Shown in pieces: positions 11,379 through 60,034 of a stretch of DNA of 64,000 bases (position 1 is its first letter; each line of letters opens with the position of its first letter). The stretch is from the NCBI GenBank assembly GCA_036264355.1, contig DATARD010000380.1:2084-66083 (forward strand), in the 5' to 3' direction. The stretch comes from Thermoanaerobaculia bacterium (GTDB taxonomy: Bacteria > Acidobacteriota > Thermoanaerobaculia > Multivoradales > UBA5704). The notes under the pieces were generated by a model. It did not search any database, was not told where the DNA came from, and saw only the letters and a list, made by a program, of their open reading frames with translations. A program made the position numbers and the translations under genes.

Positions 11379-12143
11379 ATGATACGTAAGACCTTTGTCT
11401 ATGCTCTGTTGGCCGGCCTGGTGGCGACCGCGGCCGGCGCGCAGACGGTGGACGAGATCATTGCCAAGAACCTGGAAGCGCGGGGCGGGAAGGACAAGAT
11501 CAAGGCGGTCAAGACGATCCGGATGACCGGCAAGCTCGCCCTGCCGCAGGGCATGGAGGCGCCGTTCGTCCTCGAGCTGGCGCGCCCGAACAAGATGCGC
11601 AACGAGTTCACCGTCCAGGGGATGACCGGCATCCAGGCGTTCGACGGCAAGACCGGCTGGACGGTGATGCCGTTCATGGGCAAGACGGAGCCCGAGGCCG
11701 TCTCGGGCGACGACGTGAAGAACCTGGAGGACCAGGCCGACTTCGACGGACCGCTGGTGGATTACAAGGAGAAGGGCCACCAGGTGGAGCTCGTCGGCAA
11801 GGAGACCCTCGAGGGGACGCCGGTCTACAAGCTCAAGGTGACGAAGAAGAACGGCGACGTCGAGAGCCACTACCTGGACGCCGAGCAGTACCTGGAGATC
11901 CGGGTCGAAGGCAAGAGCAAGGTGCGTGGACAGGAGGTGGAGGGCGAGACGACGCTGGGCGACTATAAAGAGGTCGGCGGCCTGATCTTCCCCTTCTCGA
12001 TCCAGACCAAGCAGAAGGGCGGCCCGGGAGGCGTGACGCTCACCTTCGACAAGATCGAGGTCAATCCGGACGTGCCGGCGAGCCGCTTCGAGATGCCGAA
12101 GCCCGACAAGCCGGCCGCCCCGCAGGCGCCGCCGCAGCCGTAG
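11379..12143 (+). CDS. LolA-like outer-membrane lipoprotein-sorting family protein (periplasmic)
   Basis: Start is ATG 11379 (MIRKTFVYALLAGLVATAAGAQ signal). The TVDEIIAKNLEARGG and KTIRMTGK blocks are typical of this family as I remember it. Confidence 0.6.
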   Translation: MIRKTFVYALLAGLVATAAGAQTVDEIIAKNLEARGGKDKIKAVKTIRMTGKLALPQGMEAPFVLELARPNKMRNEFTVQGMTGIQAFDGKTGWTVMPFMGKTEPEAVSGDDVKNLEDQADFDGPLVDYKEKGHQVELVGKETLEGTPVYKLKVTKKNGDVESHYLDAEQYLEIRVEGKSKVRGQEVEGETTLGDYKEVGGLIFPFSIQTKQKGGPGGVTLTFDKIEVNPDVPASRFEMPKPDKPAAPQAPPQP

Positions 12144-12156
12144 GGACGAGGAGCGC

Positions 12157-15100
12157 ATGCGAGCCATGGCTTCGACGCTTCGCAGATCCCTCGGTCTGCC
12201 GCTCGGTCTCTGTCTCCTGATCGCCGCTCCCGCCGCGAGCCAGGAGATCGATTCGAATACCTTCGGCGGCATCACGGCGCGGCCGATCGGCCCCGCCATC
12301 ACCAGCGGCCGCATCGCCGCGATCGACGGTGCCGCGGGCGCCTCCGGCGGCACCGGCGAGCCGGCCGTCCTGTTCATCGGCGCGGCCGGCGGCGGCCTCT
12401 GGCGCTCGAAGGACGGCGGCACCACCTTCCAGCCGGTCTTCGACGAGCACGCGCAGTCGATCGGCGCGGTCCGCATCGATCCCCGCGATCCCAAAACCGT
12501 CTGGGTGGGCACCGGCGAGCCCTGGGTGCGCAACAGCGTCTCGGTGGGCGACGGCGTCTACAAGAGCACGGACGGCGGCGACACCTGGACCAACATGGGC
12601 CTCGCCCAGAGCGAGCACATCGCCCGCATCCGGGTCAGCCCCGCCGACTCGAACACCGCCTGGGTGTGCGCCACCGGCCATCTGTGGAACGCCAACGAGG
12701 AGCGCGGCGTGTTCAAGACGGTGGACGGCGGCAAGACGTGGAAGAAGGTCCTCTACGTCAACGCCGACACCGGCTGCTCCGACCTCGACGTCGATCCGCA
12801 GGACGGGCAGATCCTCTATGCCGGCCTGTGGCAGTTCCGCCGTGCTGCCTCGTCCTTCAGCTCCGGCGGTCCCGGCAGCGGTCTCTACAAGAGCACCGAC
12901 GGCGGCGACAGTTGGCGCAAGGTGGAGAGCGGTCTGCCGGCCGGGACCAAGGGGCGGATCGCGGTGGCGGTGGCGCCGTCGCGGCCGAGCGTGGTCTATG
13001 CGCTCGTCGAGTCGCGGGACACCGCCCTCTACCGCTCGGACAACACCGGCGAGACCTGGCAGCGGGTGAACTCGTCGTTCAACATCCAGGTGCGGCCGTT
13101 CTACTTCGCCTACCTGGTGGTCGACCCGGCGGACTTCAACACGGTGTTCAAACCCGGCCTCACCCTGACCGTCAGCAGCGACGGCGGCCATACGTTCAAC
13201 GCCTCCATGGGGCTCGGCGGCAGCTATCACAGCGACCTGCATGCCCTGTGGATCAATCCCCGGGACCACCAGCAGCTCTTTCTCGGCACCGACGGCGGCA
13301 CCTACGCCTCGACCGACCACGGCACGCACTGGCGGCATCTCCAGTCGCTGCCGGTGGCGCAGCTCTACCACGTGAGCTACGACATGGAGGTGCCGTACAA
13401 CGTCTACGGCGGCCTGCAGGACAACGGCTCGTGGTCCGGCCCGTCGCGGGCGACCAGCGGCATCATGAACAAGGACTGGCGCAACATCGGCTTCGGGGAC
13501 GGCTTCTACGCGTTCCGCGATCCGCAGGCCCCCGACTTCGTCTACTCGGAGTCGCAGGGCGGGAAGATCTCGCGCCTCCAGCTTTCGACCGGCGAGGACC
13601 GCGAGATCCAGCCGCAGGCGGCCGCGGGAGAGCCCAAGCTGCGCTACAACTGGAACACGCCGATCTATCTCAGCCCGAACGAGCCGGGGACGGTCTACGT
13701 CGGCGCGCAGTACCTCTTCCGCTCGAAGGACCACGGGGAGTCGTGGGAGAAGATCTCGCCCGACCTCACCACCAACGACCCGAAGCTCCAGGAGCAGCTC
13801 AAGTCGGGCGGCCTAACGATCGACAACTCGGCGGCCGAGAACCACACCACCATCTATACCGTCAGCGAGTCGCCGAAGAACCGGCAGGTGATCTGGGTGG
13901 GGACCGACGACGGCAACCTGCAGGTCACCCGCGACGGCGGCGCCAGTTGGACGAACGTGGCGAAGAACCTCCCCGGCGTGCCGGCGCACACCTGGGTGTC
14001 CGGCGTCGAGGCCGGGCACTTCGACGACGCGACCGCCTACGCCACGCTGGACGGCCACACGACCGGCGACATGAAGACCTACGTCTTCAAGACCACCGAT
14101 TCCGGCAAGACCTGGACGCCGCTCATGACCCCGGCGCTCGCCGGCTACGCGCACGTCATCCGCGAGGACCTGGTGAATCCGGACCTGCTCTTCCTGGGCA
14201 CCGAGTCGGGGCTGTTCCTCTCGATCGACGGCGGCGCCGGCTGGGCTCGCTTCACCGGCGGCTTCCCCCCGGTGGCGGTGCGCGACCTCACCATCCACCC
14301 GCGGGACTCCGACCTGCTCATCGCGACGCATGGGCGCGGCGTCTACATCCTCGACGACCTCACGCCGTTCCGCAAGCTCCGCGCGGTGATGGACCAGGAG
14401 GTGGCGTTCCTCCCCTCGCGGCCGTCCGCGCTGGTGATCCCCTCGTCGGTGCAGAATTTCGCCGGCGACGACGAGTACGTCGGCGAGAACCCGCCGGAAG
14501 CGGCGGCGGTCACCTACTATCTGAAGAAGCGCCATCTGATCGGCGACCTCAAGCTGGAGGTCTACGACGCCCAGGGAGCGCTGGTCACCACCCTCCCCGG
14601 CGGCAAGCGCAAGGGCATCAACCGGGTGCTCTGGCCGATGCGCCTGCCGCCTCCCAAGCTGCCGGGTGGCAACTCGTTCATCGAAGAGCCGTTCTCGTTC
14701 CTCGGCCCGCGCGCGGCGCCCGGCACCTACACGGTCAAGCTGATCAAGGGGGGCCAGACGCTGACCAGCGAAGTGGTGCTGGTGCCCGACCCGCGCTCAC
14801 GGCACAGCGCCGAAGACCGCGCCCTCCAGAGGCGGTCGGTGCTCACCGCCTACAAGCTGCTCGAGACCCTGACCTGGATCGACACCGCGACGACCGGTCT
14901 GCGCGACGCGCTGCGCGACCGGGTGGCCAAGCTGCCCGCCGGCGACGCGCTGCGCCGGCAGGCGGAGAAGCTGGCCGGTGACCTCGACACCTTCCACTCG
15001 TCGCTCGTCGCCACCAGCGAGGGAGGCTGGATGTCGGGAGACGAGGAGTTGCGCGAAAACCTGGCGATCCTCTATGGCGGAATGAACGGCTATGAGGGGA

Positions 15101-22239: not shown

Positions 22240-22312
22240 GGGTCCATAGCTCAGCGGTTAGAGCATCCGGCTCATAACCGGACGGTCCCTGGTTCGAACC
22301 CAGGTGGACCCA
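22240..22312 (+). tRNA. tRNA with CAT anticodon (elongator tRNA-Met, or tRNA-Ile2 if lysidinylated); no encoded CCA
   Basis: Hand-folded 73-nt cloverleaf. Acceptor stem is GGGTCCA/TGGACCC. Anticodon loop is CTCATAA, with CAT at 22273-22275. T-loop is TTCGAAC. The G1-C72 pair and a non-GGG anticodon stem argue against an initiator. Confidence 0.9.
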
Positions 22313-34787: not shown

Positions 34788-35201
34788 ATGGCCGCTCATG
34801 CTGTAAGGCTTCATCTGCCAGGGCCGTTGTACAACCACTTCCAGAGCCGGGCCGAACGGGCGCACCGAAGCCTGGAGGCGGAGTTGCTGGCGGCGGTCGC
34901 CACGGTCGCCGCAGAGGAAGAGGAGTTGTCTCTCGACGTGGCCAGGGCGATCGAGGAGCTCAAGCTCTTGAACGAAGAGGAGCTCTGGCGGGCTGCCCAA
35001 AACCGACTCTCCGAGGAAAGCAGGTTGCAACTCGAAGCGCTCAACCTCAAACAGCAACGAGGAAGATTGACGCCGGCCGAGAAGGAGACGCTGGAGCATC
35101 TCATTGAGCAATACGACCAAGCTGTGCTGCTACGTGCGGAAGCAGCCCGACTCCTGAAGGAGCGCGGTCACGACATCTCCAGCCTCCTGACCGTGCGATG
35201 A
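34788..35201 (+). CDS. Ribbon-helix-helix-like small protein with helical C-terminal domain
   Basis: N-terminal VRLHLPGPLYNHFQSRAERAHRSLEAELL (RHH-like). RBS is AAGGAGGG. ATGA overlap with the HNH gene. Confidence 0.6.
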   Translation: MAAHAVRLHLPGPLYNHFQSRAERAHRSLEAELLAAVATVAAEEEELSLDVARAIEELKLLNEEELWRAAQNRLSEESRLQLEALNLKQQRGRLTPAEKETLEHLIEQYDQAVLLRAEAARLLKERGHDISSLLTVR

Positions 35202-35626
35202 CTTCGGACTATGTCGCGAAGAGATTGCGCGACCGCGTTGCTGAACAGGCTCGCCATCGCTGCGGCTACTGTCTGACCTCGGAGTTGGTCGTTGGTCTCT
35301 CCATGGAGATCGACCATCTCATCCCCCAGGCTCTTGGAGGTCCTACCGTCGAAGAGAACCTTTGGCTGGCCTGCTCGGCCTGTAACGGCTCCAAAGGTCA
35401 TCGGATCTCTGCCCGCGATCCGGAGAGCGGCCAGATCGTCCGGCTGTTCAACCCTCGTGAGCAGAGTTGGGAAGAGCACTTTTTCTGGGCGGATTCGGGC
35501 TGTCGAATCGTCGGGAAAACAGCCGTCGGCCGGGCCACGGCGAAGGAGCTCCGCCTCAACCGTCCTCTCCTGGTTCGAGCGAGAAAGGTCTGGATCGCGG
35601 CCGGTTGGCATCCGCCGGTGGATTGA
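35198..35626 (+). CDS. HNH endonuclease
   Basis: CGYC ... EIDHLIPQALGG ... NLWLACSACNGSKG. Confidence 0.85.
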   Translation: MTSDYVAKRLRDRVAEQARHRCGYCLTSELVVGLSMEIDHLIPQALGGPTVEENLWLACSACNGSKGHRISARDPESGQIVRLFNPREQSWEEHFFWADSGCRIVGKTAVGRATAKELRLNRPLLVRARKVWIAAGWHPPVD

Positions 35627-49570: not shown

Positions 49571-50146
49571 CTATCTGGCCGGGTTTTGGCCCCGCCGTTC
49601 GCGGAGCGCCGCGAACAGCTCGCGCACCGCGGGAAAATCATTGTCGGGTCCCATATCCGGAAAATTCTCCGGATTGTCCCAGAACTCGGCGAGCGCGCCG
49701 GTCCCCCAGCGCTCGTAGACCGCCACCTTGAGCATGAGCTGAAGCTTGTCGCAAGCCTTCACCAGCCGGGCCTCGGGTGTGGTGCCTTGCTGGTACTCCT
49801 CATAGAGCGCCAGAGCGCGCTCGGGCAGCGGCGCGAGGATCTCCGCCATCGCGGCCGCCTCGGCGGTCTTCTTCGCACCCACCGGAAAATAGCGCGACGC
49901 GACCCGCGGCAGATCGCCGACCCGCAGCTCGGCGAGGTCGTGCACCAGCGCGATCTCCATCGCCCGCGTTAGATCGATCCCCTCGCTCCGCGCGCCAAGC
50001 GCCCAGACCAGGAACAGCACGTGCCAACTGTGCTCGGTCACACTCTCCGGCTCGGCGACGCCGCGCAACACATAGCCGCTCCGCGGCACCCGGTCGAGGA
50101 TCTGAAGCTCCAGGCAGAGGTCGAGCAACGTTTCATTGGCGCGCAT
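49571..50146 (-). CDS. HD-domain phosphohydrolase (YfbR-like 5'-deoxynucleotidase family)
   Basis: Start is ATG 50146. ESVTEHSWHV ... VHDLAELRVGD ... KACDKLQ. Confidence 0.8.
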   Translation of the reverse strand: MRANETLLDLCLELQILDRVPRSGYVLRGVAEPESVTEHSWHVLFLVWALGARSEGIDLTRAMEIALVHDLAELRVGDLPRVASRYFPVGAKKTAEAAAMAEILAPLPERALALYEEYQQGTTPEARLVKACDKLQLMLKVAVYERWGTGALAEFWDNPENFPDMGPDNDFPAVRELFAALRERRGQNPAR

Positions 50147-50281
50147 GGCTCGGCGAGAGTACCGCAAGGCACAGGGCAGCGTCGACCCGGCGCGCGTGCT
50201 AACATTTCCTGACTCCGTAACCGGAAGAGCAGAATCCGGGGATTCGATTCGATCCCGTGGGCTCAAGGGGAGGCTGGGAGC

Positions 50282-51220
50282 ATGAAAAAGCACGACGAGA
50301 GCTATCGGCTCTTGTTCTCCATCCCGCGGATGATCATCGAGCTCCTCCGGGGATTCTTCGGCCAAGCTTGGGTCGACCGCATGGACTTCGAGACTCTGGA
50401 GCGGGTCAATTCCAGCTACGTCTCCCCGAAGCTCCGCAGGCGGGAGACCGATATCGTCTGGCGTGCCCGCCTCAAGGACGGCAGACCCGTCTACGTCTAT
50501 CTGCTGCTCGAGCTCCAATCAAGCGTCCAGAAGTACATGGCCGTCCGCCTGATGGTCTACGTGGGTCTGCTCTACCAGGATCTCATCAAGAGAGGAGAGC
50601 TGTCTCCCGACGGCAAGCTGCCTCTCGTCATCCCCATCGTCCTTTACAATGGTGAAGAGCGCTGGTGGGCGCCGCTCCAGTTGGCCGACCTGATCGAGGA
50701 GGTCGATCCGGAGGCCGATCTGTTCCGGCCCAGCTTTGCCTGCAAGCTGATCGACGCGGGATCCTACGCTCTGGACGATCTCGCGGCGCAGGAGAGTAAT
50801 GCCGTCGCGGCGCTCTTCTGGCTGGAGAAGACTCCCGAGCCGGAAGGTCTCCAGCAAGGCATCGACCGGCTGGCGAAAGATCTGGACCAACCGGAGGATG
50901 GCGAGCTGCGGAGCGCCTTCGCGAGCTGGCTGTTGCTGGTGCGGTTCGCAGACGAGGACGAGTTACCAGACACCCTGGGATTGGAGGACTTTCGAACCAT
51001 GCTGACAAAACGAGCTGTGGAGTGGAACGAGAAGCTCCTGGAGCGGGGACGCCAGGAGGGAGAGGCAGGGCTTGTGCTCCGCCTGCTCGAGCAAAAGTTT
51101 GGCCCTCTCGATGCACGGAGCCGGAAACGGGTGACGTCTGCCGGCAAAGATCAACTGGACGCTTGGACGGATCGGATCCTGGTCGCAGAGAAGATCAGCG
51201 ACGTCTTTCGAGAGAGCTGA
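50282..51220 (+). CDS. Rpn-family recombination-promoting nuclease / putative transposase (YhgA-like PD-(D/E)XK)
   Basis: ETDIVWRARLKDGRPVYVYLLLELQSSVQKYMAVRLMVY, with a C-terminal DUF4351-like helical region (RGRQEGEAGLVLRLLEQKFG). Confidence 0.8.
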   Translation: MKKHDESYRLLFSIPRMIIELLRGFFGQAWVDRMDFETLERVNSSYVSPKLRRRETDIVWRARLKDGRPVYVYLLLELQSSVQKYMAVRLMVYVGLLYQDLIKRGELSPDGKLPLVIPIVLYNGEERWWAPLQLADLIEEVDPEADLFRPSFACKLIDAGSYALDDLAAQESNAVAALFWLEKTPEPEGLQQGIDRLAKDLDQPEDGELRSAFASWLLLVRFADEDELPDTLGLEDFRTMLTKRAVEWNEKLLERGRQEGEAGLVLRLLEQKFGPLDARSRKRVTSAGKDQLDAWTDRILVAEKISDVFRES

Positions 51221-51337
51221 CGGCGTCCCTCCGGAGCGGAGCTCTGCTCCGGTCAGATCTCTGGCACCCCACGCAACTTTCCCCTCCTGGCAGCGTATCA
51301 AGCGGTTACCACCGCAACGCTTTGCAGGAGGTGTCAC

Positions 51338-52090
51338 ATGTCCGGGAACAGAGAAGCATTGATGGCGCAGATTTTCTTCGCCATTGCCCGGGGAACCGGC
51401 GGCATGCGGGTCTCGCGGCAGGCGAGCGCATGGCTTTCAGCGCGGTATTTGCGCTGGCTCACCGCGGTGAAGCCGGGATTGAAGGCGGCGCCGATCGCTC
51501 TCTGGGCGGACAAAGGACAGGGATTTTTAGGCAAATTCAAGGAGATCGGCGAGCACGCCCGCGCCGGCTCGGCGATCGCCGCCGGTAGCGAGCTGACGAT
51601 GGACGATGTCGCGGCCGCCGCCTGGCGGGTCGAATCGGAAGCCTCTTGCCCGTTCTGCCCGCTCTGGCCGCAGCCGTCTGGGCTGGAGAGGGAGACGCCG
51701 CTGGAAGATACCGTTTTCGGCCAGATCGTCTTCGCCCTCGCCCGCGGCGCCGGGGAGATGCGCCTCTCGCTCGAGGCGAGCGCATGGTTCCATGATGCCT
51801 ATGCGCCGTGGCTGACGGCCACCAAGCCGGAGCTCGTCTCCTCGCCCTTGGAAGTCTGGGAGATCATGGGGAAAGGCTTCCTGGCCAAATTCCGCGAGAT
51901 CGGCAAGGGAGCCCGCGGCATCGCCGGCGGCGAGATCCGCCGCGAGGAGCTGCAGGCCAGCGCGTGGGCAGTCGAAGCGGAGGCGCCGTGCCCATATTGC
52001 CCTATCGTGCCGCCGCCGGGCGTTCTTGAAGACGCCTCGTGCGGCGCCGGTGGTGCCGAGAGTCTGCTCCAGATCCAGCTCCCGGCCTGA
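51338..52090 (+). CDS. Hypothetical protein made of two tandem ~110-aa repeats, each ending in CPxCP
   Basis: RBS is AGGAGG. Repeat A is IFFAIARGTGGMRVS..ASAWL..WLTAVKPGL..GQGFLGKFKEIG..AAWRVESEASCPFCP. Repeat B is IVFALARGAGEMRLS..ASAWF..WLTATKPEL..GKGFLAKFREIG..SAWAVEAEAPCPYCP. I recognise no family. Confidence 0.6.
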   Translation: MSGNREALMAQIFFAIARGTGGMRVSRQASAWLSARYLRWLTAVKPGLKAAPIALWADKGQGFLGKFKEIGEHARAGSAIAAGSELTMDDVAAAAWRVESEASCPFCPLWPQPSGLERETPLEDTVFGQIVFALARGAGEMRLSLEASAWFHDAYAPWLTATKPELVSSPLEVWEIMGKGFLAKFREIGKGARGIAGGEIRREELQASAWAVEAEAPCPYCPIVPPPGVLEDASCGAGGAESLLQIQLPA

Positions 52091-52148
52091 TCCTGCCTCC
52101 GTTCCCGACCCTGGGGAGCGGCAACGCGCCGCTCCCGTTTCCCTCCTC

Positions 52149-52170
52149 CGCGCGTAATGTCGTCCGTAAC
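52149..52170 (+). promoter_or_regulatory. Conserved 22-nt block CGCGCGTAATGTCGTCCGTAAC upstream of the second paralogue
   Basis: A near-identical block recurs at 53189-53210 (19/22 identical by my count). Confidence 0.4.
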
Positions 52171-52247
52171 TCCGCCGGTGCCAAACTTCCAAAAGCCGGC
52201 TCCAAGAGGTGCATGGCAGTCGGCAATCCCTTGCAGGAGGTTTGATG

Positions 52248-52952
52248 ATGTCCGGGACAAGTAATGCATTGATGGTCCAGAGCCTTTTCTCCACCGCGCG
52301 GGGGACCCGCGGCATGCGGATCTCTCGCGAGGCGAGCGCATGGCTGTCGGCTTGGCTGATGGAGACGAAGGCCGGCCTCGCCAAGCTCCAGGAGATCGGC
52401 GAACGGGCCCGCGAGACCGCGAGCGGCGGTGTGCTGCGGGTGGAGGACCTGGCCGCCGCCGCCGGACAGGTCGAGCTCGATGCCACCTGCCCCGGCTGCG
52501 CGGCCTGGCCACCGCCGGCGGCTCTGGAGATGGAGGCGCCGCTGGAGGACGCCGTCTTCGGACAGATCGTCTTCGCTCTCGCCCGGGGAGCCGGGAACGC
52601 GCGCCTCTCGCTCGACGCGTGCGCGTGGTTTCACGACCGCTACGCGGCCTGGCTGACGGCCACCAAGGTGGATCTCGTCGCGTCGCCGCTGGAGGTCTGG
52701 GAGACCATGGGCAACGGCTTCCTCTCCCGGTTCAAGGCGATCGGCGAAGGCGTCCGCAGCGTCACGGGCGTCTCCAGCGTCTCCGATATCGAGATCAGCC
52801 TCCAGGAGCTGCAGGCCAGCGCGTGGGAGGTCGAGGCGGAGTCTCCGTGCTCCTACTGCCCGAGCGAGCCGGGCGTTCAGGATGAAGACGCGTTCGGCTG
52901 GAACGCCGGTCTCTCCTCCCGAAGCCTGCTCCGGGTCCAGCTCCCGGCCTGA
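52248..52952 (+). CDS. Paralogue of 51338..52090 (first repeat shortened, second intact)
   Basis: AGGAGG lies 7 nt upstream of ATG 52248. It shares the ..CPGC.. / ..CSYCP motifs and the C-terminal SLLRVQLPA (the paralogue has SLLQIQLPA). Confidence 0.6.
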   Translation: MSGTSNALMVQSLFSTARGTRGMRISREASAWLSAWLMETKAGLAKLQEIGERARETASGGVLRVEDLAAAAGQVELDATCPGCAAWPPPAALEMEAPLEDAVFGQIVFALARGAGNARLSLDACAWFHDRYAAWLTATKVDLVASPLEVWETMGNGFLSRFKAIGEGVRSVTGVSSVSDIEISLQELQASAWEVEAESPCSYCPSEPGVQDEDAFGWNAGLSSRSLLRVQLPA

Positions 52953-52989
52953 CTCGGATTAAAGGGTATTTGGAAATTCGAGCCGTTGT

Positions 52990-53138
52990 AGCCTCACCCC
53001 CCTGGCCCCCCTCTCCCATCCCCTCCCACCCTCCGGGAGAGGGGGGAATGGAGAGCCAGAGGGTGATGCGTGACCTGGGTGGTGGCGCCCCTCTCCCGGC
53101 GGCAGGGAGGGGATGGGAGAGGGGACGGGGGTGAGGCT
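52990..53138. repeat. Nested inverted-repeat (MITE/REP-like) element, ~150 bp
   Basis: Outer arms are AGCCTCACCCCCCTGGCCCCCCTCTCCCATCCCCTCCC (52990-53027) and GGGAGGGGATGGGAGAGGGGACGGGGGTGAGGCT (53105-53138). Inner pair is CCGGGAGAGGGG / CCCCTCTCCCGG. Confidence 0.65.
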
Positions 53139-53188
53139 CCACCGGTGGCGATTTCCCAAACACCCTCTTCGCTCCTTCCCGTAGCGTT

Positions 53189-53210
53189 CGCGCGTAATGT
53201 TCCCCGTAAC
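53189..53210 (+). promoter_or_regulatory. Second copy of the conserved block, CGCGCGTAATGTTCCCCGTAAC
   Basis: See 52149-52170. It contains the ATG (53197) that opens the listed ORF, which argues that this ATG is not the real start. Confidence 0.4.
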
Positions 53211-53259
53211 CCGGGTATGGCAGACTCGGTATCGTCAATTTCACGTCTCTCTCAAAACT

Positions 53260-56200
53260 ATGCGCTCACTTCCTCTCCGGATGCCGGCGATTCTGGTCCA
53301 TGCCTGGTCGGACCCCGCGGTCGAAGTCTGCCCGCCGGAGACCGCGGCGGCTCTCCTGGCGCTGCCCGGTGTCGTCCGGCTCGGCCCGGGACGCTTCGCG
53401 ATCGTGCCGGTGGCGAACGATCCGGGGGAGATGGAGACGGCGCTGCGCTGTGGCGAGCGGTTGCTGGCGGCGCGGGACGGCGATCGCCGGGCGGTGCTCC
53501 TGCTGCCCGTCCAGGTGCGGCTCGGCCTCGGACCACGGTCGCCGGCGGCCGAGCTGATCGCCGAGCCTCTGCTCGACGACCTGGAGCAGCAGGTGCCGAT
53601 CCTGCCGTGGGGCGCGGTCTATTTTTCCGGCTATGCGATGGCGCGCGCCGAGTCGCGGCTGGAAATGAAGATGTGCGGCCTCTATGAAGGGCCGTCGGGA
53701 ACCCAGGTCACGCTGTTCCGCCCGCTCCGGCCGCGCGACGACGTGCGCCCGTGGCACAACACGCATCTGGTCGACCGGCCGCTGGAGTATGTGCCGCGTC
53801 CGGATCTGGAAAGCGAGCTGGCGGCGGTCTCGGAGACGGCGGTGCTGCGGATCACCGGCGCGATGGGCTGCGGCAAGACCCGGCTGGTGTGGGAAACCCT
53901 GGGACCGGAGCGCCGGAAGACAGAAGGCGGCGGCGCCTTCTGTCTCTGGGTGAGCCTGCGCGGGCGGCGGGACGAGCCGGCCCGGCCGCTCGCGGCGTTG
54001 CGGCGGCAGCTCGTGCGGCTCGCCGGCAAGGATGCGCTCGCCGGGCTGATCCAGGCCGAGGCGCCGCCGTCCGATCTGCCGGAGCTGCTCGCCAAGTCGC
54101 TGGTGCTCGCCAGCCGCCGCGCCGGCGCTCCCCTGCGCCTGGTCTGCGACGACGTGCACGTGGCGGATGTCGAGACGCAGAGACTGATCGCGGGCCTCGC
54201 CGCACACCCCGAGGCGGGGAGCTCCTTCTCGCTGGTGCTGGTGGGCCGGCCGCGTACATTCTTCCAGACGCTTCAGGCGTTCCAGACCCTCCCGGCGGTG
54301 TGGGCGGGCTGTCCGCAGGTGGCGGGGGCGCCCGAGGTGATCGTGCCGCCGATGGCCGCGGCGCCTCTCGCGGCGCTCGCCGGCAAGCTGTTCCACGATC
54401 TCCTGATGCCGACCGAGGTGAAGCAGCAGATCGTGGAGGCCTCGGGCGGATTCCCGCTGGCGCTCGAAGAAGAGCTGTCGCGGATGATCCAGCGCCGCCA
54501 GCTCCGGCACCACGGCAACTTCTTCGTCAGCGGCCGCCAGGACATCGACTTCGAGCCGTCGTTCCATCTCATCCAGGAGATGTGCGCCGAAGCCCGCGCG
54601 CTCGGCGATCCGACGCCGCTGCGCCTCCTCGCCCTGGCGGACACCGCGGTGCCGTCGTTCGCCCTGGCCGAGGCGGCTCTCGCCTGCGACGCGGCGCCGC
54701 CTCCGGGCTGGGAAGCGCCCTTCCTCGCCGGCGGCTGGCTGCGCCGGTCGCCGTCGCCCTGGGGGATCGGCGTCGATTTCGCCGCCACCGCATACGGCCG
54801 GGCGATGGCGGCGACGGTGGATCCGGAAGCCGCGCCGGGCATGCGGAGCGCGCTGGGCGAGGTGCTCTCCGCGGCGGACGACCGGCCGCGCGGGCTGTGG
54901 CATTCCTACCGCCTGCTCTCGGGCGGACCCGGCGCCGTGCCGCGCATCCTCGAGCTCGCCCGCGAGCATCCGCAGAGCCTGCCGGCCCGCGAGGTGCTCG
55001 ACGGTCTCGCCTGGGAGCTCGCCGCGCACCGCGAGCGCGGCGGCGATCAGGCGACCGAGATCCAGATCCTCTGGCTGCTCCTCCCGCTGGCGCGCCGCCT
55101 CGGCCGTCTGGAGCGCTTCGAGGGCGACGTCGCGCGGGCCGTCGAGCTTGCGCAAGCCGAGCCGCGCAAGCTCCTCGCCTTCTCCGGCCTCAAGGCGGAT
55201 CTCGATCTCCAGAAGAGCCGCCTGGCCGACGGCGAGCGGACGCTGCGCGCCGTTCTCGATCAGGTGCTGGACGCCGATCCTTCGCACCAGTCGTTGCTGC
55301 TTTTACAGCTCGGCCGCCTGCTCGCCCGCCAGGAACGGCACAAGGAGGCCCGGCACCTGTTCGAGAACCTCCTCGCCACCGTCGAGGAGCGCGGCTCCAC
55401 GGCGCTCGCCGCCACCTGCCGCTTCCACCTCGGCAACATCGCGCTACGCGAAGGGCGGCTGCGCGAGGCGCAGACGTACCACCGCGAAGCCATGCGGATG
55501 CGCCGCAAGGAGAAAAACCTCAAGGCGCTGGGATCGTCGCTCTCCGCGCTCGGCGCCGTGTACTCGACCCTGGGAGCCTTCCCGCGGGCGCTCTGGTACT
55601 ACCAGGAGGCCGAGCGCGTGCTGCGCGAGTATGGCGAGGACGGCGAGGAGAGCTTCGCGCTGTTCGGTCTCGGCCGGGTGCTCGGTCTGTTGGGCGACGC
55701 GACCTCGGCCGCCGAGCCGTTGCGGCGCGCCCTGGCCCTGCGCGAAGGGAAGGCCGACGCGGTCGGCGAGGCGCTGGCCCGCTTGCAGGTCGCGGCGAAC
55801 CACGCCGATCTGCAAAATCTGGACGAAGCGCTGGCCGAGGCCCGCCGCGCCCACTTCCAGCTCAGCCTGGCGCCGGAGAGCGGCATCCTCGGCGACGCCG
55901 AGCAGCTCCTCGGCCGCATCCACTTCCTGCTGCAACAGCTCGACGCGGCCGGCACGTCGTTCGCGACGGCGCTGGAGATCCACGAGCGCCACGGCGACCA
56001 CGGCGCCGCATTGCGCGACCGGAGCTGGCTGCTGGAGACGGCCCTCGCCAACGGGAAGGAGACGGAGATCCGCCGGCTCTGCCGCGAGCTCGAGGCGGCG
56101 CTGGAGGCCGGCGTGCCGCCGCTCGGCGGCTCGTTTGCCGTCGTCGACTACCGGCTGGCCCGCGGCTGGGAGTGGCTGCGCCTCAACGGCCGCGGCGGCA

Positions 56201-56358
56201 CCGATCCGGCGCGCTTCTTTGCCCGCGCCTACCAGACCCTCCTCGACACGGCCTCGCCGCTGCCCGAGGGCCTGCGCCGCCGCTTCCTCCTCCAGGTGCC
56301 GGAAAACGCCGCCATCGTCGAAGCCGCCGCCAGCCGCCACTTGGTCAGCCAGGCGTAG
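53260..56358 (+). CDS. STAND/AAA-type NTPase with C-terminal TPR array and ~190-aa N-terminal domain of uncertain nature
   Basis: Walker A is ITGAMGCGKTRLV (53851-53889). Walker B is LRLVCDDVHVAD (about 54133-54168). Multiple TPR-like repeats fill the last ~350 aa. Start is uncertain (53197, 53260 or 53281). Confidence 0.75.
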   Translation: MRSLPLRMPAILVHAWSDPAVEVCPPETAAALLALPGVVRLGPGRFAIVPVANDPGEMETALRCGERLLAARDGDRRAVLLLPVQVRLGLGPRSPAAELIAEPLLDDLEQQVPILPWGAVYFSGYAMARAESRLEMKMCGLYEGPSGTQVTLFRPLRPRDDVRPWHNTHLVDRPLEYVPRPDLESELAAVSETAVLRITGAMGCGKTRLVWETLGPERRKTEGGGAFCLWVSLRGRRDEPARPLAALRRQLVRLAGKDALAGLIQAEAPPSDLPELLAKSLVLASRRAGAPLRLVCDDVHVADVETQRLIAGLAAHPEAGSSFSLVLVGRPRTFFQTLQAFQTLPAVWAGCPQVAGAPEVIVPPMAAAPLAALAGKLFHDLLMPTEVKQQIVEASGGFPLALEEELSRMIQRRQLRHHGNFFVSGRQDIDFEPSFHLIQEMCAEARALGDPTPLRLLALADTAVPSFALAEAALACDAAPPPGWEAPFLAGGWLRRSPSPWGIGVDFAATAYGRAMAATVDPEAAPGMRSALGEVLSAADDRPRGLWHSYRLLSGGPGAVPRILELAREHPQSLPAREVLDGLAWELAAHRERGGDQATEIQILWLLLPLARRLGRLERFEGDVARAVELAQAEPRKLLAFSGLKADLDLQKSRLADGERTLRAVLDQVLDADPSHQSLLLLQLGRLLARQERHKEARHLFENLLATVEERGSTALAATCRFHLGNIALREGRLREAQTYHREAMRMRRKEKNLKALGSSLSALGAVYSTLGAFPRALWYYQEAERVLREYGEDGEESFALFGLGRVLGLLGDATSAAEPLRRALALREGKADAVGEALARLQVAANHADLQNLDEALAEARRAHFQLSLAPESGILGDAEQLLGRIHFLLQQLDAAGTSFATALEIHERHGDHGAALRDRSWLLETALANGKETEIRRLCRELEAALEAGVPPLGGSFAVVDYRLARGWEWLRLNGRGGTDPARFFARAYQTLLDTASPLPEGLRRRFLLQVPENAAIVEAAASRHLVSQA

Positions 56359-56364
56359 CCGGTC

Positions 56365-56688
56365 ATGGCACCCACCGTGCTCTCGGTCGACGGTGATCTT
56401 TCTCCGGACTTCCTGAAAACCCTTGAATCTCTGGAAGCGCTGGACGACCGCGAGCTGTGGCGTCTGGCCGGCGAGGTCATGTCTCTGGAGGCGAGCCGAG
56501 AGCTTGAGAGCCTGCATCTCAAGATGGGTGACCAAGGTCTGAGCCCGGAGGAAGACGCCGCGCGCGCGCGGCTCATTCAAGAGTACGAGCGCTCGATGCT
56601 GATCCGGGCCCAGGCGGCAAAGCTCCTCAAAGATCGAGGGCGCGACATCTCCAGGCTCCTTTCAGTTGCGCGGGAACCATACAGGTAA
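56365..56688 (+). CDS. Small helical protein, paralogous to the C-terminal domain of 34788..35201
   Basis: LDDRELWRLAGEVMSLEASRELESLHLKM..LSPEE..LIQEYERSMLIRAQAAKLLKDRGRDISRLL aligns with LNEEELWRAAQNRLSEESRLQLEALNLKQ..LTPAE..LIEQYDQAVLLRAEAARLLKERGHDISSLL. Confidence 0.5.
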   Translation: MAPTVLSVDGDLSPDFLKTLESLEALDDRELWRLAGEVMSLEASRELESLHLKMGDQGLSPEEDAARARLIQEYERSMLIRAQAAKLLKDRGRDISRLLSVAREPYR

Positions 56689-56946
56689 AGAGAGCGCGCT
56701 TCTCTTTCGTGCTCCTCCTCGCTGCGCCGGAATACACCTTTGGCAGACGGTGACTACGAATACGGGCAGGAGGATGGTCGAGTGTCCTCTGCTCGTTGGA
56801 TTCTATTTTCAAAGAACGCCGTTCCGCTTCGCCCAGGCTTCGGCCGGCTCGGAATCGGCCGCGGGCGCTTTACCCAGGCCCATTCCGGGCTGACTCTGCG
56901 TCTGGCGGCGCGGCAGAGCCCTGCGCTGCTCCAGAACCGATCCGCT

Positions 56947-57253
56947 CAAGCCATCCGAAACGTCTGACGGCTTGAAGTCCCCCTGGTCACGACGGAATGG
57001 CGCCGGTCAGACCGTCCGCGGCTTCTGGCGCTCCAGAATCGGCTTGGCCAAGCCGTCCGAGTTTTCTGACGCTCTGGAATGGGGCTGATCAAGCCGCCCC
57101 GATCTTCTGATGAGTCGGAATGGCTCTGCTCGAAACGTCATCGGTTCATGGCGAACGGAAACGGCGTCATCCAAGCCATCGCCCGCTTCTGGTAATGAAG
57201 AATGGAGCGGCTCAAACCGTCGTCGCGGCTCTTGAGGCTCTACCGCGGGCGCC
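56947..57253. repeat. Degenerate tandem repeat, six units phased at exactly 41 bp (57008-57253) plus 1-2 out-of-phase units upstream
   Basis: Unit anchors CA(A/G)(G/A)CC lie at 57008, 57049, 57090, 57131, 57172 and 57213. Consensus is CAAGCCGTC-N6-TTCTGR-N6-GGAATGG-N7. Confidence 0.65.
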
Positions 57254-57761
57254 GCCGGTCGATCCCGTAGCACAACATCTCGCGCCCGATGTGCTCGATG
57301 CGCTTCAGCAGTTTTTCTCCGATCCGCTCGACGAGGCGGATGGAGGCGCGGTTGTCCGGGTGGACGAGACTGATCACACGGTCTTTCTTCCAGACGTTGA
57401 ACGCATGGTGCAGAGCGGCCTGTGCGGCCTCGCTTGCATAGCCCTGCCCCCACCACCGCCGCGCCAGCCGCCCGGCGAGCTCGAACCCGGGCCAGCCTTC
57501 CGGCTCGAAAAAACCGGCGAGCCCCACGAACGAGCCGGTCTCCCTGTGCTCCACCGCCCAGGTGCCGGTTCCCCGAATGTACCAGTGGCCCACGACGTAG
57601 GTCAGATGCCGCCAGGCCCGGCCCCGGTCCCAGGTCTCGCCGATGTGGCGCATCACCTCGGGGTCCGCGTGCAACGCGGCGTAGTCGTCGAGATCGGCCT
57701 GATGGAGAGGCCGAAGCCACAGCCGTTCGGTGGTCAGGGTCGGGATGACGGAATTCTCCAT
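57240..57761 (-). CDS. GNAT-family N-acetyltransferase (RimJ/RimL-like)
   Basis: Start is ATG 57761. TERLWLRPLHQADLDDYAALHADPEVMRHIG ... RRWWGQGYASEAAQAAL. The listed 350-aa ORF is an upstream read-through. Confidence 0.85.
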   Translation of the reverse strand: MENSVIPTLTTERLWLRPLHQADLDDYAALHADPEVMRHIGETWDRGRAWRHLTYVVGHWYIRGTGTWAVEHRETGSFVGLAGFFEPEGWPGFELAGRLARRWWGQGYASEAAQAALHHAFNVWKKDRVISLVHPDNRASIRLVERIGEKLLKRIEHIGREMLCYGIDRRRPR

Positions 57762-57890
57762 GGCTCTCTCCTTTTCGGTCCGCTTGTCCCGACTCTGGCA
57801 AAGGTGCAGACTGCCCCGGGGGCTCTCGATTTCTGACATCCGGTCAATGGCTGACCAGACACCTCTCGACCCCCGGAAAGAATCTGCCCC

Positions 57891-58007
57891 ATGATCCGTG
57901 CTCTTCTGCTGCTGGTGCTGGCCCTCGTCAACCCCGACGCGGGTGGCCGTTTCGACCCCGACGGCACCACCACCGACGCGGGCAACCGTTTCGACCCGAA
58001 CGGCTGA
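57891..58007 (+). CDS. Candidate 38-aa peptide MIRALLLLVLALVNPDAGGRFDPDGTTTDAGNRFDPNG
   Basis: My own translation. ATG start, weak GGAAAG 10 nt upstream, hydrophobic leader, two DAGxRFDxxG motifs, and a stop directly after the second motif. It is below the size cut-off of the ORF track. Confidence 0.35.
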   Translation: MIRALLLLVLALVNPDAGGRFDPDGTTTDAGNRFDPNG

Positions 58008-58148
58008 TGGCGCGTAGTCGCCGGGTCGGTCCGCCGTTCCCTTGTCCCTGTCCTGGCAAAGGGGCAGACTGCCCCGGGGGTTCTCGATTTCTGACACCTG
58101 GTCAATGGCTGACCAGATACCTTTCGACCCCCGGAAAGGATCTGTCCT

Positions 58149-58265
58149 ATGGTCCGTGCTCTTCTGCTGCTGGTACTGGCCCTCCTCGACCCCGACGCAG
58201 GCAACCGTTTCGACTCCGACGGCACCACCACCGACGCGGGTGGACGTTTCGACCCCAACGGCTGA
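58149..58265 (+). CDS. Candidate 38-aa peptide MVRALLLLVLALLDPDAGNRFDSDGTTTDAGGRFDPNG
   Basis: Second copy, with frame, length and stop position preserved. 5 of the 11 differing codons are synonymous. Confidence 0.35.
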   Translation: MVRALLLLVLALLDPDAGNRFDSDGTTTDAGGRFDPNG

Positions 58266-58303
58266 CGGCTCGCAATTCGTGGTTTGACACACTCTTACTT
58301 CAT

Positions 58304-58328
58304 GGGGGCATTTTCGCCCCCTATTTCC
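58304..58328 (+). terminator. Intrinsic terminator-like hairpin after the peptide modules
   Basis: GGGGGC-ATTTTC-GCCCCC followed by TATTTCC. There is a T-rich tail only in the plus orientation. Confidence 0.45.
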
Positions 58329-58366
58329 GCTACAATGCCGATTAAAGATGGTATGGAGGGGATGAG

Positions 58367-59903
58367 ATGGGCAGACACTTCAGCCGGGAAGCCCTGCTGC
58401 GGCTTCTTCGCGGGCCGGCCAGCGAGGCCGAGACGACGCGCGCCATCCGGCATGTGATGGAGTGCCGCCACTGCCGGAGGGTCGGGGCCGAGTGCCTGCT
58501 TCAGGAGAAGGTGGGAGATGTCCGCAACCCTCTCGTGGCGATCCTCCAGGCGGACGCGAACGGTTGGATCGAGGACATGGAGGCCGGGATTTGGTGGAAC
58601 GAGATCAAAGACCTCGGCCCGGAAAGCCAAATCACCAAGATCCGTTCGACCGCTGCCCTGCAGAGCCTGCAGGTGTTCGAGGAGATTCTGGCCGACACGA
58701 GAACCACAGCTCTCTCGGACCCCTTCCTCGGAGAGAGCAAGGCACGTGTCGCTCTAGTGGTCGCGGATCTCCTTCCGGAGCCCCACAATCCGAGGGCCCT
58801 CAAGAATGACCTCCGGGGAAAAGCCATGATGGCCGCCGCGAACTGCCGCCGGCTCGCGGCGGATTTCCCGGGTGCGGCCTCGGCGATCGAAGAGTCGCGG
58901 CGCTATTTGGCTCAGGGCACGGGAGATCCGGGCCTGAAGGCCGGGCTCCTCTCGATCCACTGCTCTTTGTGCACCGATCTCGGTGATTTCGAAAAGGCAC
59001 TGGCCTGCGTCCGCCGAGCTGTGAAAATCTTCCGGGAGTTGGAGGATTGGCAGGCTCTCGCGCACAACGCCGTCCTGGAGGCTAACTGTCTGCTCGCCGC
59101 CAACCAGACGGCGGAAGCGATCGAGAGAGCCCACTTCGCCCTTGAGCGCATGCCGCTCCATGAGACACGGCTTGAGGTTCTGGCGAAGCTCATCCTCGCC
59201 GAGGGCCTCATCATCTTGGAACGGCCTCTGGAGGCGCGCCCACATCTCGCAGACGCAAACTCACTCTGCAAGAAGTCGCAGCTCGGGTTGCAGCTTCTGG
59301 CCCTCTCGGTCGAAGCGCGTCTTCTGGACGCCCTCGGCAGCGTAAGGGAATCGGAAAAGCTCTTTCGCCAGACGGTGAAGGCCTTCTTTGACCAGGAGAT
59401 GTACAAGCAGGCCTTCCTCACCCTGCTGACCCTCTTCGAATGCCTCGTCCGCCGCGGCGCGCTCGACAAGGCCGCGGCTCTCTGCGAGGAGGCGATCGCC
59501 GCGACATCGCAGACGGGAGAGGCGTGCAACGAGCAGATCCGGCGGGCCTGGGAGGAGCTTCTGGCCACGGTGCGGGTGCGCCAGCTCAGCGAGAGCGAGC
59601 TGAGTCAGGCACGGCAGTATCTCGTCCGCAACTGGAGCGTGGCGGCCGGCACGTTTCCGGCTCCCGCGGGTGGAGGCCGGCCCGCCATGGCCTCCCTCCC
59701 CTCCCGAGCTCCCGCCGCCTCCACCCTTGCCGGACACGGAGGCCTCGGCGCCCGCCAGCTTTCCGGAGGCCCGCGAAGAGTACGACCGGCGGCTCGTTAC
59801 GGCGGCCCTGGAAAAGGCCGGCGGCAACCTCAGCGAGGCCAGCCGCCTGCTCGGGATCTCCCGCAACACGCTCAAGGCACGGCTGCGTCAGTACGGGCTG
59901 TAA
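58367..59903 (+). pseudogene. TPR-containing regulator with N-terminal Cys/His motif and C-terminal Fis-type HTH, interrupted by an apparent frameshift
   Basis: ORF 58367..59938 carries HVMECRHCRRVGAEC and TPR-like helices but ends in Arg/Gly/Pro-rich junk. The overlapping frame (open from 59604, ORF 59670..59903) ends in EEYDRRLVTAALEKAGGNLSEASRLLGISRNTLKARLRQYGL. Confidence 0.55.
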
Positions 59904-60034
59904 GCGCCATGGCTTGCTTCCCGCTGTTGCCGATGTAGCATCCTGGCTCAGGGCTTGCTTGTCTCCGAGACGGTCTTGCGCCGTGTCTCACCCGTGCTAT
60001 AGGATGCCGCCGAGCTTGTGACGACTTTCACAAA

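Follow-up and report, generated by a model that had tools for sequence, protein, structure and literature searches.

Proteins that join a class III cyclase, an AAA_16 ATPase and a TPR region, in that order, are represented in Mycobacterium tuberculosis by, for example, Rv0386, Rv1358 and Rv2488c. In Streptomyces, the STAND protein AfsR, which consists of an effector domain, an ATPase and TPRs, is bound by the small, internally repeated protein AfsS encoded beside it, and AfsK, a Ser/Thr kinase of that network, has a small binder of its own, KbpA (PMC10832544). The window analyzed here, a 64-kb stretch of a Thermoanaerobaculia contig (DATARD010000380.1), contains at 50282-56688 five co-oriented open reading frames (ORFs) on the plus strand, among them a STAND NTPase with a TPR array and, upstream of it, two small paralogous genes, designated A and B. 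The ORFs and domain matches agree with a first-pass annotation, which had named the five products as an Rpn nuclease, two paralogues, a STAND NTPase-TPR protein and a small protein. That annotation had also read the five as one nuclease/STAND/adaptor system, and this does not hold up, as the Rpn gene and the small gene vary between related loci. Comparison of these loci indicates that the cluster is a composite: the set that recurs, its conserved core, is A, B and the NTPase, and this core has been joined by an Rpn gene and a truncated antitoxin-like gene. The reading preferred here, to which we give about an even chance, is that the core is a vertically inherited regulatory module of A, B and a STAND ATPase with pseudo-cyclase, AAA_16 and TPR parts, with Rpn and the small gene as separate inserts.

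The NTPase has the Walker motifs, the AAA_16 domain and the C-terminal TPR sensor of a STAND protein. Its P-loop core (53839..54228) matches PF13191 (AAA_16) with 39.8 bits against a cutoff of 32.6 and contains a Walker A motif, GAMGCGKT (about 53857-53880), and a Walker B motif, LVCDD (about 54148-54153), whose G-C-G-K and D-D residues, respectively, are invariant across the NTPase alignment (A4). The TPR array and C-terminal helical region (55288..56358) match TPR_12 with 66.5 bits (cutoff 30.1, E 2.4e-18) and LGN/Pins-type TPRs in the PDB. The earlier description of the protein as a STAND ATPase with TPRs thus stands, but it missed an N-terminal cyclase-like domain (53260..53740), and the start needs correction. 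The ATG at 53197 falls within a conserved upstream block, and the start is most likely 53260 or 53281, the two positions conserved among the related sequences. An AlphaFold2 model of residues 1-184 (pLDDT 81) retrieved class III adenylyl/guanylyl cyclases as all of its best 50 Foldseek matches (best E 2e-6, probability 1.00, TM 0.41-0.59), and by this model the domain has the class III cyclase fold. It is probably a catalytically inactive pseudo-cyclase, because Pfam Guanylate_cyc (PF00211) finds no match in the NTPase and because, on inspection of the alignment and the secondary structure of the model, the beta2-beta3 hairpin has GPG where the second metal-binding Asp is expected, and LLDDLE stands in the helix that should hold Asn/Arg (VNxAxR). 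The canonical cyclase catalytic motifs are not recognizable in alignment A4, and a PDB sequence search with the N-terminal domain gave nothing meaningful.

In its order of class III cyclase fold, P-loop AAA_16 and TPR, the window NTPase resembles the M. tuberculosis proteins. It differs from them in the absence of a Guanylate_cyc match, in the altered metal-Asp hairpin and catalytic helix, and in the lack of a C-terminal LuxR helix-turn-helix (HTH). The ATPase is best described as a novel variation on the known cyclase-ATPase-TPR layout. The likeness to the AfsR-AfsS and AfsK-KbpA pairs is one of arrangement: a small, internally duplicated family lies beside a STAND-TPR ATPase in one lineage and beside Ser/Thr kinases in another. 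There is no sequence relationship, and the SARP DNA-binding domain of AfsR has no counterpart in the window ATPase, which instead contains a degenerate cyclase domain and is without an HTH. AfsS is also only 63 residues long and lacks a Cys motif, and its binding to AfsR is described whereas that of A and B to the ATPase is predicted.

The comparison set consisted of related soil-metagenome contigs, probably from Thermoanaerobaculia (Acidobacteriota), that were picked as carrying A/B relatives (L001-L006). STAND orthologues in this set are 88-95% identical to the window copy, with the TPR part the most conserved region (92-98.5%). A similar range of identity, 79-98%, is seen for the flanking DUF92, UbiA, DUF1232, HD, ActA and ActB products, and the ratio of nonsynonymous to synonymous substitution rates (dN/dS) is 0.15-0.19 for STAND compared to 0.09-0.10 for ActA. 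By these measures the NTPase is evolving as slowly as its housekeeping neighbors.

This conservation bears on a different explanation, that A, B and the ATPase together defend against phage as a new system of the Avs/STAND kind, in which the TPR array senses a phage product and A and B serve as fast-evolving decoys, guards or effectors, the whole lying in a small defense and toxin-antitoxin hotspot beside Rpn. The architecture favors it: like Avs and other antiviral STAND proteins, the window NTPase is a large P-loop protein that ends in a TPR array and begins with a domain that is not an NTPase. Against it, the N-terminal domain is a degenerate cyclase and not a nuclease, protease, SIR2, TIR or other typical Avs effector, and the ATPase is conserved to the same degree as the housekeeping neighbors, with a TPR part that is the most conserved of all rather than variable. 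The PADLOC scan proposed with the first-pass annotation matched no Avs, NACHT or other defense NTPase model with either the NTPase or its N-terminal domain, and returned solely two generic TPR models, PDLC01169 and PDLC01092. The locus occupies a fixed chromosomal position with no integrase, and the sole tRNA in the window is at 22240, in keeping with the earlier statement that no tRNA flanks the cluster. An immune role is considered unlikely, and regulatory rather than immune output would be expected of the module.

The A and B proteins appear to represent a new domain family. A (51338..52090) and B (52245 or 52248 to 52952) share 55% identity (E 2e-87), and each is an internal duplication, the two halves of A sharing 48% identity (E 2e-35). 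Each of the two tandem domains of A, about 105 residues long, ends in CP-x-CP, and a disordered tail ending in LPA follows. In B the first domain is degenerate, with a 16-residue deletion relative to A and a CPGCA motif, and the second domain is intact and followed by the LPA tail. An AlphaFold2 model of A (pLDDT 83, pTM 0.83) consists of two domains, each with four helices and short strands, and a disordered tail. Neither protein matched Pfam, NCBIfam, PADLOC or PHROGs, a PDB sequence search with the A/B profile gave nothing meaningful, and Foldseek searches of the A model against the PDB (best E 0.9) and BFVD found no match, with nothing better than E 0.8. Weak Foldseek matches to AAA-lid and histone folds were dismissed as noise. 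The family is small, with 28 clusters among 5.8 billion proteins. A profile search recovered 91 proteins among 1.84 billion representative proteins, most of them single-domain proteins of 105-115 residues that end in CP-x-CP; the named members belong to Thermoanaerobaculia, and a scan of GTDB genomes with the A/B profile found one locus only.

The family is marked by an invariant motif, CP[YFWH]C(P). We take CP[YFWH]C to be a dithiol motif of the glutaredoxin/DsbA type, and single-domain relatives of A and B also adjoin genes for DsbD and a thioredoxin-fold peroxidase. Unlike glutaredoxin and DsbA, A is predicted to be all-helical with two short strands and has its motif at the C-terminal end of the domain. 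The model does not contain the thioredoxin fold that carries CxxC in a dithiol oxidoreductase. Both proteins also evolve quickly: orthologues are 68-77% (A) and 71-83% (B) identical to the window copies, and dN/dS is 0.37-0.39 for A and 0.50-0.52 for B. Their rate of evolution is two to five times that of their neighbors, and they are still under purifying selection. These raised ratios are a point in favor of an antiphage role. The LPA tail is conserved in the STAND-linked copies and missing from the single-domain and L005-type members; it provides a lead for recognition by the TPR array, though one that is confounded by phylogeny.

A second setting of the family is independent of STAND proteins. 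In all five contexts that were read (L007, L008/L009, L010, L011 and L014), single-domain members are found in one type of locus, ordered as radical SAM (minus strand), DsbD, AhpC/TSA redoxin, small protein, membrane Ser/Thr kinase of about 880 residues, small protein and second kinase (for example, L008 3362-12150). A GAF domain was detected in some of the kinases of this size. A reading of the small protein and kinase as a ribosomally synthesized and post-translationally modified peptide precursor with a lanthipeptide kinase was dropped; the kinases are membrane Hanks-type sensor kinases and have no lyase or cyclase domains. The family travels with STAND in one lineage, but the relatives read elsewhere pair with Ser/Thr kinases and not with nucleases or STAND proteins, and the pairing with membrane kinases beside thiol-redox genes is a further argument against an antiphage system. 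From these gene orders, the family is located directly upstream of a large signaling protein in two independent settings, one of them a thiol-redox setting, and the tandem pairing of small protein and kinase in Thermoanaerobaculia looks like an undescribed signaling arrangement in its own right.

A broader proposal, which we regard as speculative and rather improbable, is that CP-x-CP proteins are unrecognized cysteine-switch adaptors of Acidobacteria signaling enzymes, or else fast-evolving decoys of a new STAND immune system. As adaptors, single domains would act on membrane Ser/Thr kinases and the tandem-domain pseudo-dimers on the pseudo-cyclase STAND ATPase. They would plug into repeat or sensor regions, and through them the kinase or ATPase would be switched according to thiol-redox or metal status.

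The linkage of A and B to the NTPase is seen in the gene order of the related loci. A, B and STAND occupy one and the same site, between the HD-hydrolase gene and the ACIII operon, in three of them. The order is HD, Rpn, A, B, STAND, ACIII in L002, and the same in L003 with two additional small genes after Rpn and two after STAND. L004 reads HD, A, B, STAND, then Fic and a 61-residue gene on the minus strand, then ACIII, and it lacks Rpn. L006 reads B, STAND, ACIII, with the contig ending just upstream of B. L001 reads HD, A, a 137-residue gene and, further on, ACIII, and it lacks Rpn, B and STAND. DNA alignment shows that L001 retains about 100 nt of the STAND 3' end, from which it is concluded that it is a deletion derivative. 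By the test proposed with the first-pass annotation, co-occurrence of the clustered genes elsewhere, only A, B and the NTPase go together, and in one lineage only.

Several observations weigh against a functional partnership. In L005 an A-like gene stands alone next to a trp operon. An hmmsearch over six-frame ORFs found no A/B-family ORF in the flanks of seven loci with more distant STAND homologues (L015, L017, L020, L022, L023, L024 and L025). Because distant STAND homologues have no A or B nearby, the linkage is one evolutionary event in one lineage. Adjacency is thus confined to one closely related lineage, and common descent alone could explain it. The STAND homologue of L015 adjoins a restriction-modification methylase gene and a specificity gene (N6_Mtase and Methylase_S), which fits a role in defense equally well. 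The inserts gathered at the site (Rpn, Fic, DUF2283 and ribbon-helix-helix (RHH)) also make it a small hotspot for toxin-antitoxin-like genes. The antiphage explanation can draw on the latter two observations, with the 61-residue gene beside Fic counted among the defense-like genes, and on the deletion of B and STAND from L001, which shows them to be dispensable.

Some observations are those expected if A/B and the ATPase were functionally unrelated and merely syntenic by descent. Co-occurrence is limited to close contigs with all flanking genes in common, A/B are lacking beside distant STAND homologues, A is present without STAND in L005 and L001, and hairpins lie between the genes. Three findings argue otherwise: an 18-nt block common to the upstream regions of B and STAND and found nowhere else in the 64 kb, the repeated position of the family immediately upstream of a large signaling protein in the second, independent context, and the restriction of the LPA tail to STAND-linked copies. 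On balance, mere adjacency seems a rather improbable explanation.

The 18-nt block, CGTAATGTNNNCCGTAAY, has exactly two copies in the 64 kb (0.01 expected), one upstream of B (52153..52170) and one upstream of the NTPase (53193..53210). The copy upstream of B, CGTAATGTCGTCCGTAAC, contains direct CGTAAY repeats with a 12-nt period, and the copy upstream of the NTPase is CGTAATGTTCCCCGTAAC. Both positions are kept in L002, L003, L004 and L006. A scan of the window found no copy upstream of A. The first-pass annotation had suggested that the paralogues and the NTPase are co-regulated, and the common block supports this for B with the NTPase but not for A. A variant, CGTAATCTTCCYCTTAAC, is located upstream of the STAND homologues of L015-L017, which are 46-50% identical and have no A/B gene. 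This distribution is another point against a partnership, and it suggests that the block is probably ancestral to the STAND promoter and was later gained by B. Sigma-54 and sigma-70 readings of the block were rejected, as the spacing is unfit, and a reading as an extracytoplasmic function (ECF) sigma promoter was rejected for lack of a conserved CGT at the right distance. A consensus scan of 50000-57300 found no sigma-70-like promoter.

The region upstream of A contains a different block, GCAAC-N16-CGTA (51273..51299), which is kept in six of six orthologous loci and looks like an ECF-type promoter. A GC-rich hairpin after A (52113..52136), GGGGAGCGGC...GCCGCTCCC, resembles a terminator without a T-run and was not called by the terminator scan; GC-rich hairpins follow both A and B in the orthologous loci. 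These elements look like those of separate transcription units, with B and STAND co-regulated.

The spacer between B and STAND also contains an imperfect palindrome of about 200 nt (52968-53165), with 37-nt arms that are 92% complementary and a predicted RNA fold of -150 kcal/mol (z -7.0). It is specific to the window; the spacer in L002, L003, L004 and L006 is about 150 nt shorter and has a short hairpin only. The palindrome looks like an insertion of the miniature inverted-repeat transposable element or repetitive extragenic palindromic type. A conserved TAACATTYCCTSACTCSGTAAY block lies upstream of Rpn in the window (50190-50282), L002 (8640-8742) and L003 (6545-6643) and partly resembles the CGTAAT-N6-CGTAAC block of B and STAND. 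Promoters of this organism may commonly contain elements of the CGTAAC type.

The site also bears traces of past change. L001 (11342-11420, 3' of the small gene) and L027 (1039-1440, 3' of STAND) each contain a short remnant of the 3' end of an A-like gene, encoding ...VESEAPCP[FY]CP..., which suggests that A-like genes were once present in additional copies, or were rearranged, at the site. In L001, a long tandem array of units of about 21 nt (about 11500-12300; GPAHVGR heptads in translation) is found in place of B and STAND.

The first gene of the cluster encodes an Rpn/YhgA-like PD-(D/E)XK nuclease (50282..51220). It matches Transposase_31 (PF04754) with 114.9 bits against a cutoff of 21 (E 4.8e-33), which identifies the Rpn core, has a D...ELQS motif in the translation and a C-terminal PF14261 (DUF4351) tail, and evolves with a dN/dS of 0.10. 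An in-frame ATG at 50999 (Met240), with GGAGGA 10 nt upstream, opens a candidate internal RpnS-like ORF of 73 residues (50999..51220) that covers DUF4351 (E 3.6e-8). Gene-within-gene Rpn toxin-antitoxins (RpnL/RpnS) are described as self-contained, and Rpn proteins are reported to be antiphage toxins (bioRxiv 10.1101/2023.05.02.539157). The window gene is like RpnL/RpnS in its Transposase_31 core, its variable C-terminal domain (DUF4351) and its putative in-frame internal start with a Shine-Dalgarno sequence; its similarity to the E. coli Rpn equivalogs is low (45 bits, where the cutoff is 583). The gene fits the self-contained RpnL/RpnS type of toxin-antitoxin or defense gene. The cassette extends from about 50190 to 51268, between the HD gene and the A promoter. 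Rpn is present in three of the five loci that show the HD-A junction and is cleanly missing from this junction in L004 and L001. It would be an autonomous gene-within-gene nuclease cassette of the toxin-antitoxin/defense type, inserted at the edge of the module.

The small gene at the other end of the cluster (56365..56688) encodes 107 residues. It is present and co-oriented, as previously described, but it is a truncated gene. Its L001 counterpart is a full 137-residue gene, 88% identical to the window protein, and DNA alignment shows that the window ORF lacks 133 nt of that gene, comprising the native ATG and the RHH-like N-terminus. The start codon of the window ORF, the ATG at 56365, comes from a stretch that lies between genes in L001. 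For the small gene, dS between the window and L001 is 0.12, compared to 0.41 for ActA and 0.60 for A in the flanks, and because it is so far below the flanking values, separate and recent acquisition is indicated. The gene is not found in any of the four other STAND-bearing loci (L002, L003, L004 and L006). Full copies score below the FitA-like_RHH cutoff of 27 bits (22.7 for L001 and 16.2 for the window copy at 34788-35201), a weak RHH match. The small protein matched nothing in PADLOC, NCBIfam or PHROG, a PDB sequence search gave nothing meaningful, and no toxin-like ORF was found after 56688, an HNH partner being present only at the 34788 paralogue. By these comparisons it is a truncated remnant of an RHH-antitoxin-like gene, with an RHH-plus-helical layout, and has no conserved partnership with the NTPase.

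The window paralogue (34788-35201, 137 residues, weak RHH match) has a 4-nt overlap between its stop and the start of the gene for an HNH endonuclease (35198-35626, 142 residues), confirming the earlier observation that the small protein has a paralogue partnering an HNH nuclease. The 34788-35626 pair is likely toxin-antitoxin-like. An ORF of 83 residues lies downstream of it and one of 486 residues upstream, both on the minus strand.

These properties of the outer genes decide against all five genes forming one antiphage or signaling system. Such a system would account for the co-orientation and tight spacing of the genes in the window and would accord with the antiphage toxicity reported for Rpn proteins. 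It is contradicted by the variable gene content: Rpn is missing from L004 and L001, and the small gene is missing from L002, L003, L004 and L006 and truncated in the window. The low dS of the small gene marks a separate, recent acquisition, and Rpn is described as self-contained. A five-gene system is thus very improbable. The locus also serves as a caution, since a layout of nuclease, STAND and small protein can arise from mobile toxin-antitoxin-type genes landing beside a conserved regulator.

Downstream of the cluster, a segment of the window (56.7-59.9 kb) with a GNAT acetyltransferase gene and a zf-HC2/TPR regulator gene is missing as a whole from the orthologous loci. The GNAT gene is on the minus strand and is closely followed on its downstream side by four tandem copies of a 38-nt unit (56993-57153; 41-nt spacing, 66-71% identity to the reference copy). 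Upstream of the gene, 1.9 copies of a 258-nt unit (57783-58269; 88% match) inflate its ORF to 350 residues, of which only residues 190-325 match Acetyltransf_3. The gene at 58367-59938 has a weak zf-HC2 match and MalT-like TPR repeats and runs into out-of-frame sequence, and at its 3' end (59670-59903) a different frame encodes a Fis-type HTH_8 (E 2e-13). Either a frameshift, real or from assembly, or a split gene would account for this layout. A GNAT acetyltransferase and a zf-HC2-containing regulator are found within a few kb of STAND in both L015 (2652-4054) and the window (57240-59938), the zf-HC2 part being fused to an ECF sigma factor in L015; the genes may be loosely linked in function, or their proximity may be accidental.

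Finally, a working mode can be proposed for the regulatory module of A, B and the ATPase. B and the ATPase would be separate transcription units switched together through one operator or promoter block, and A would be under its own ECF-like promoter. A and B are predicted to bind the ATPase, making contact with the TPR array through the disordered tail ending in LPA or through the helical domains. They would thereby modulate the nucleotide-driven switching of the ATPase, and their Cys pairs would form a switch that responds to redox state or metal, so that the module may sense redox status. This mode would resemble the action of AfsS on AfsR and of KbpA on AfsK. The 107-residue gene would take no part, being a truncated and recently gained RHH-antitoxin-like remnant. 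If the partnership is true, A and B define a new small-protein family, whose predicted fold is likewise new and whose CP[YFWH]CP motif is conserved, and a cyclase-derived pseudo-enzyme STAND would be added to the catalogue of such proteins. The family would then regulate two classes of large signaling proteins in the abundant uncultured Acidobacteria of soil.

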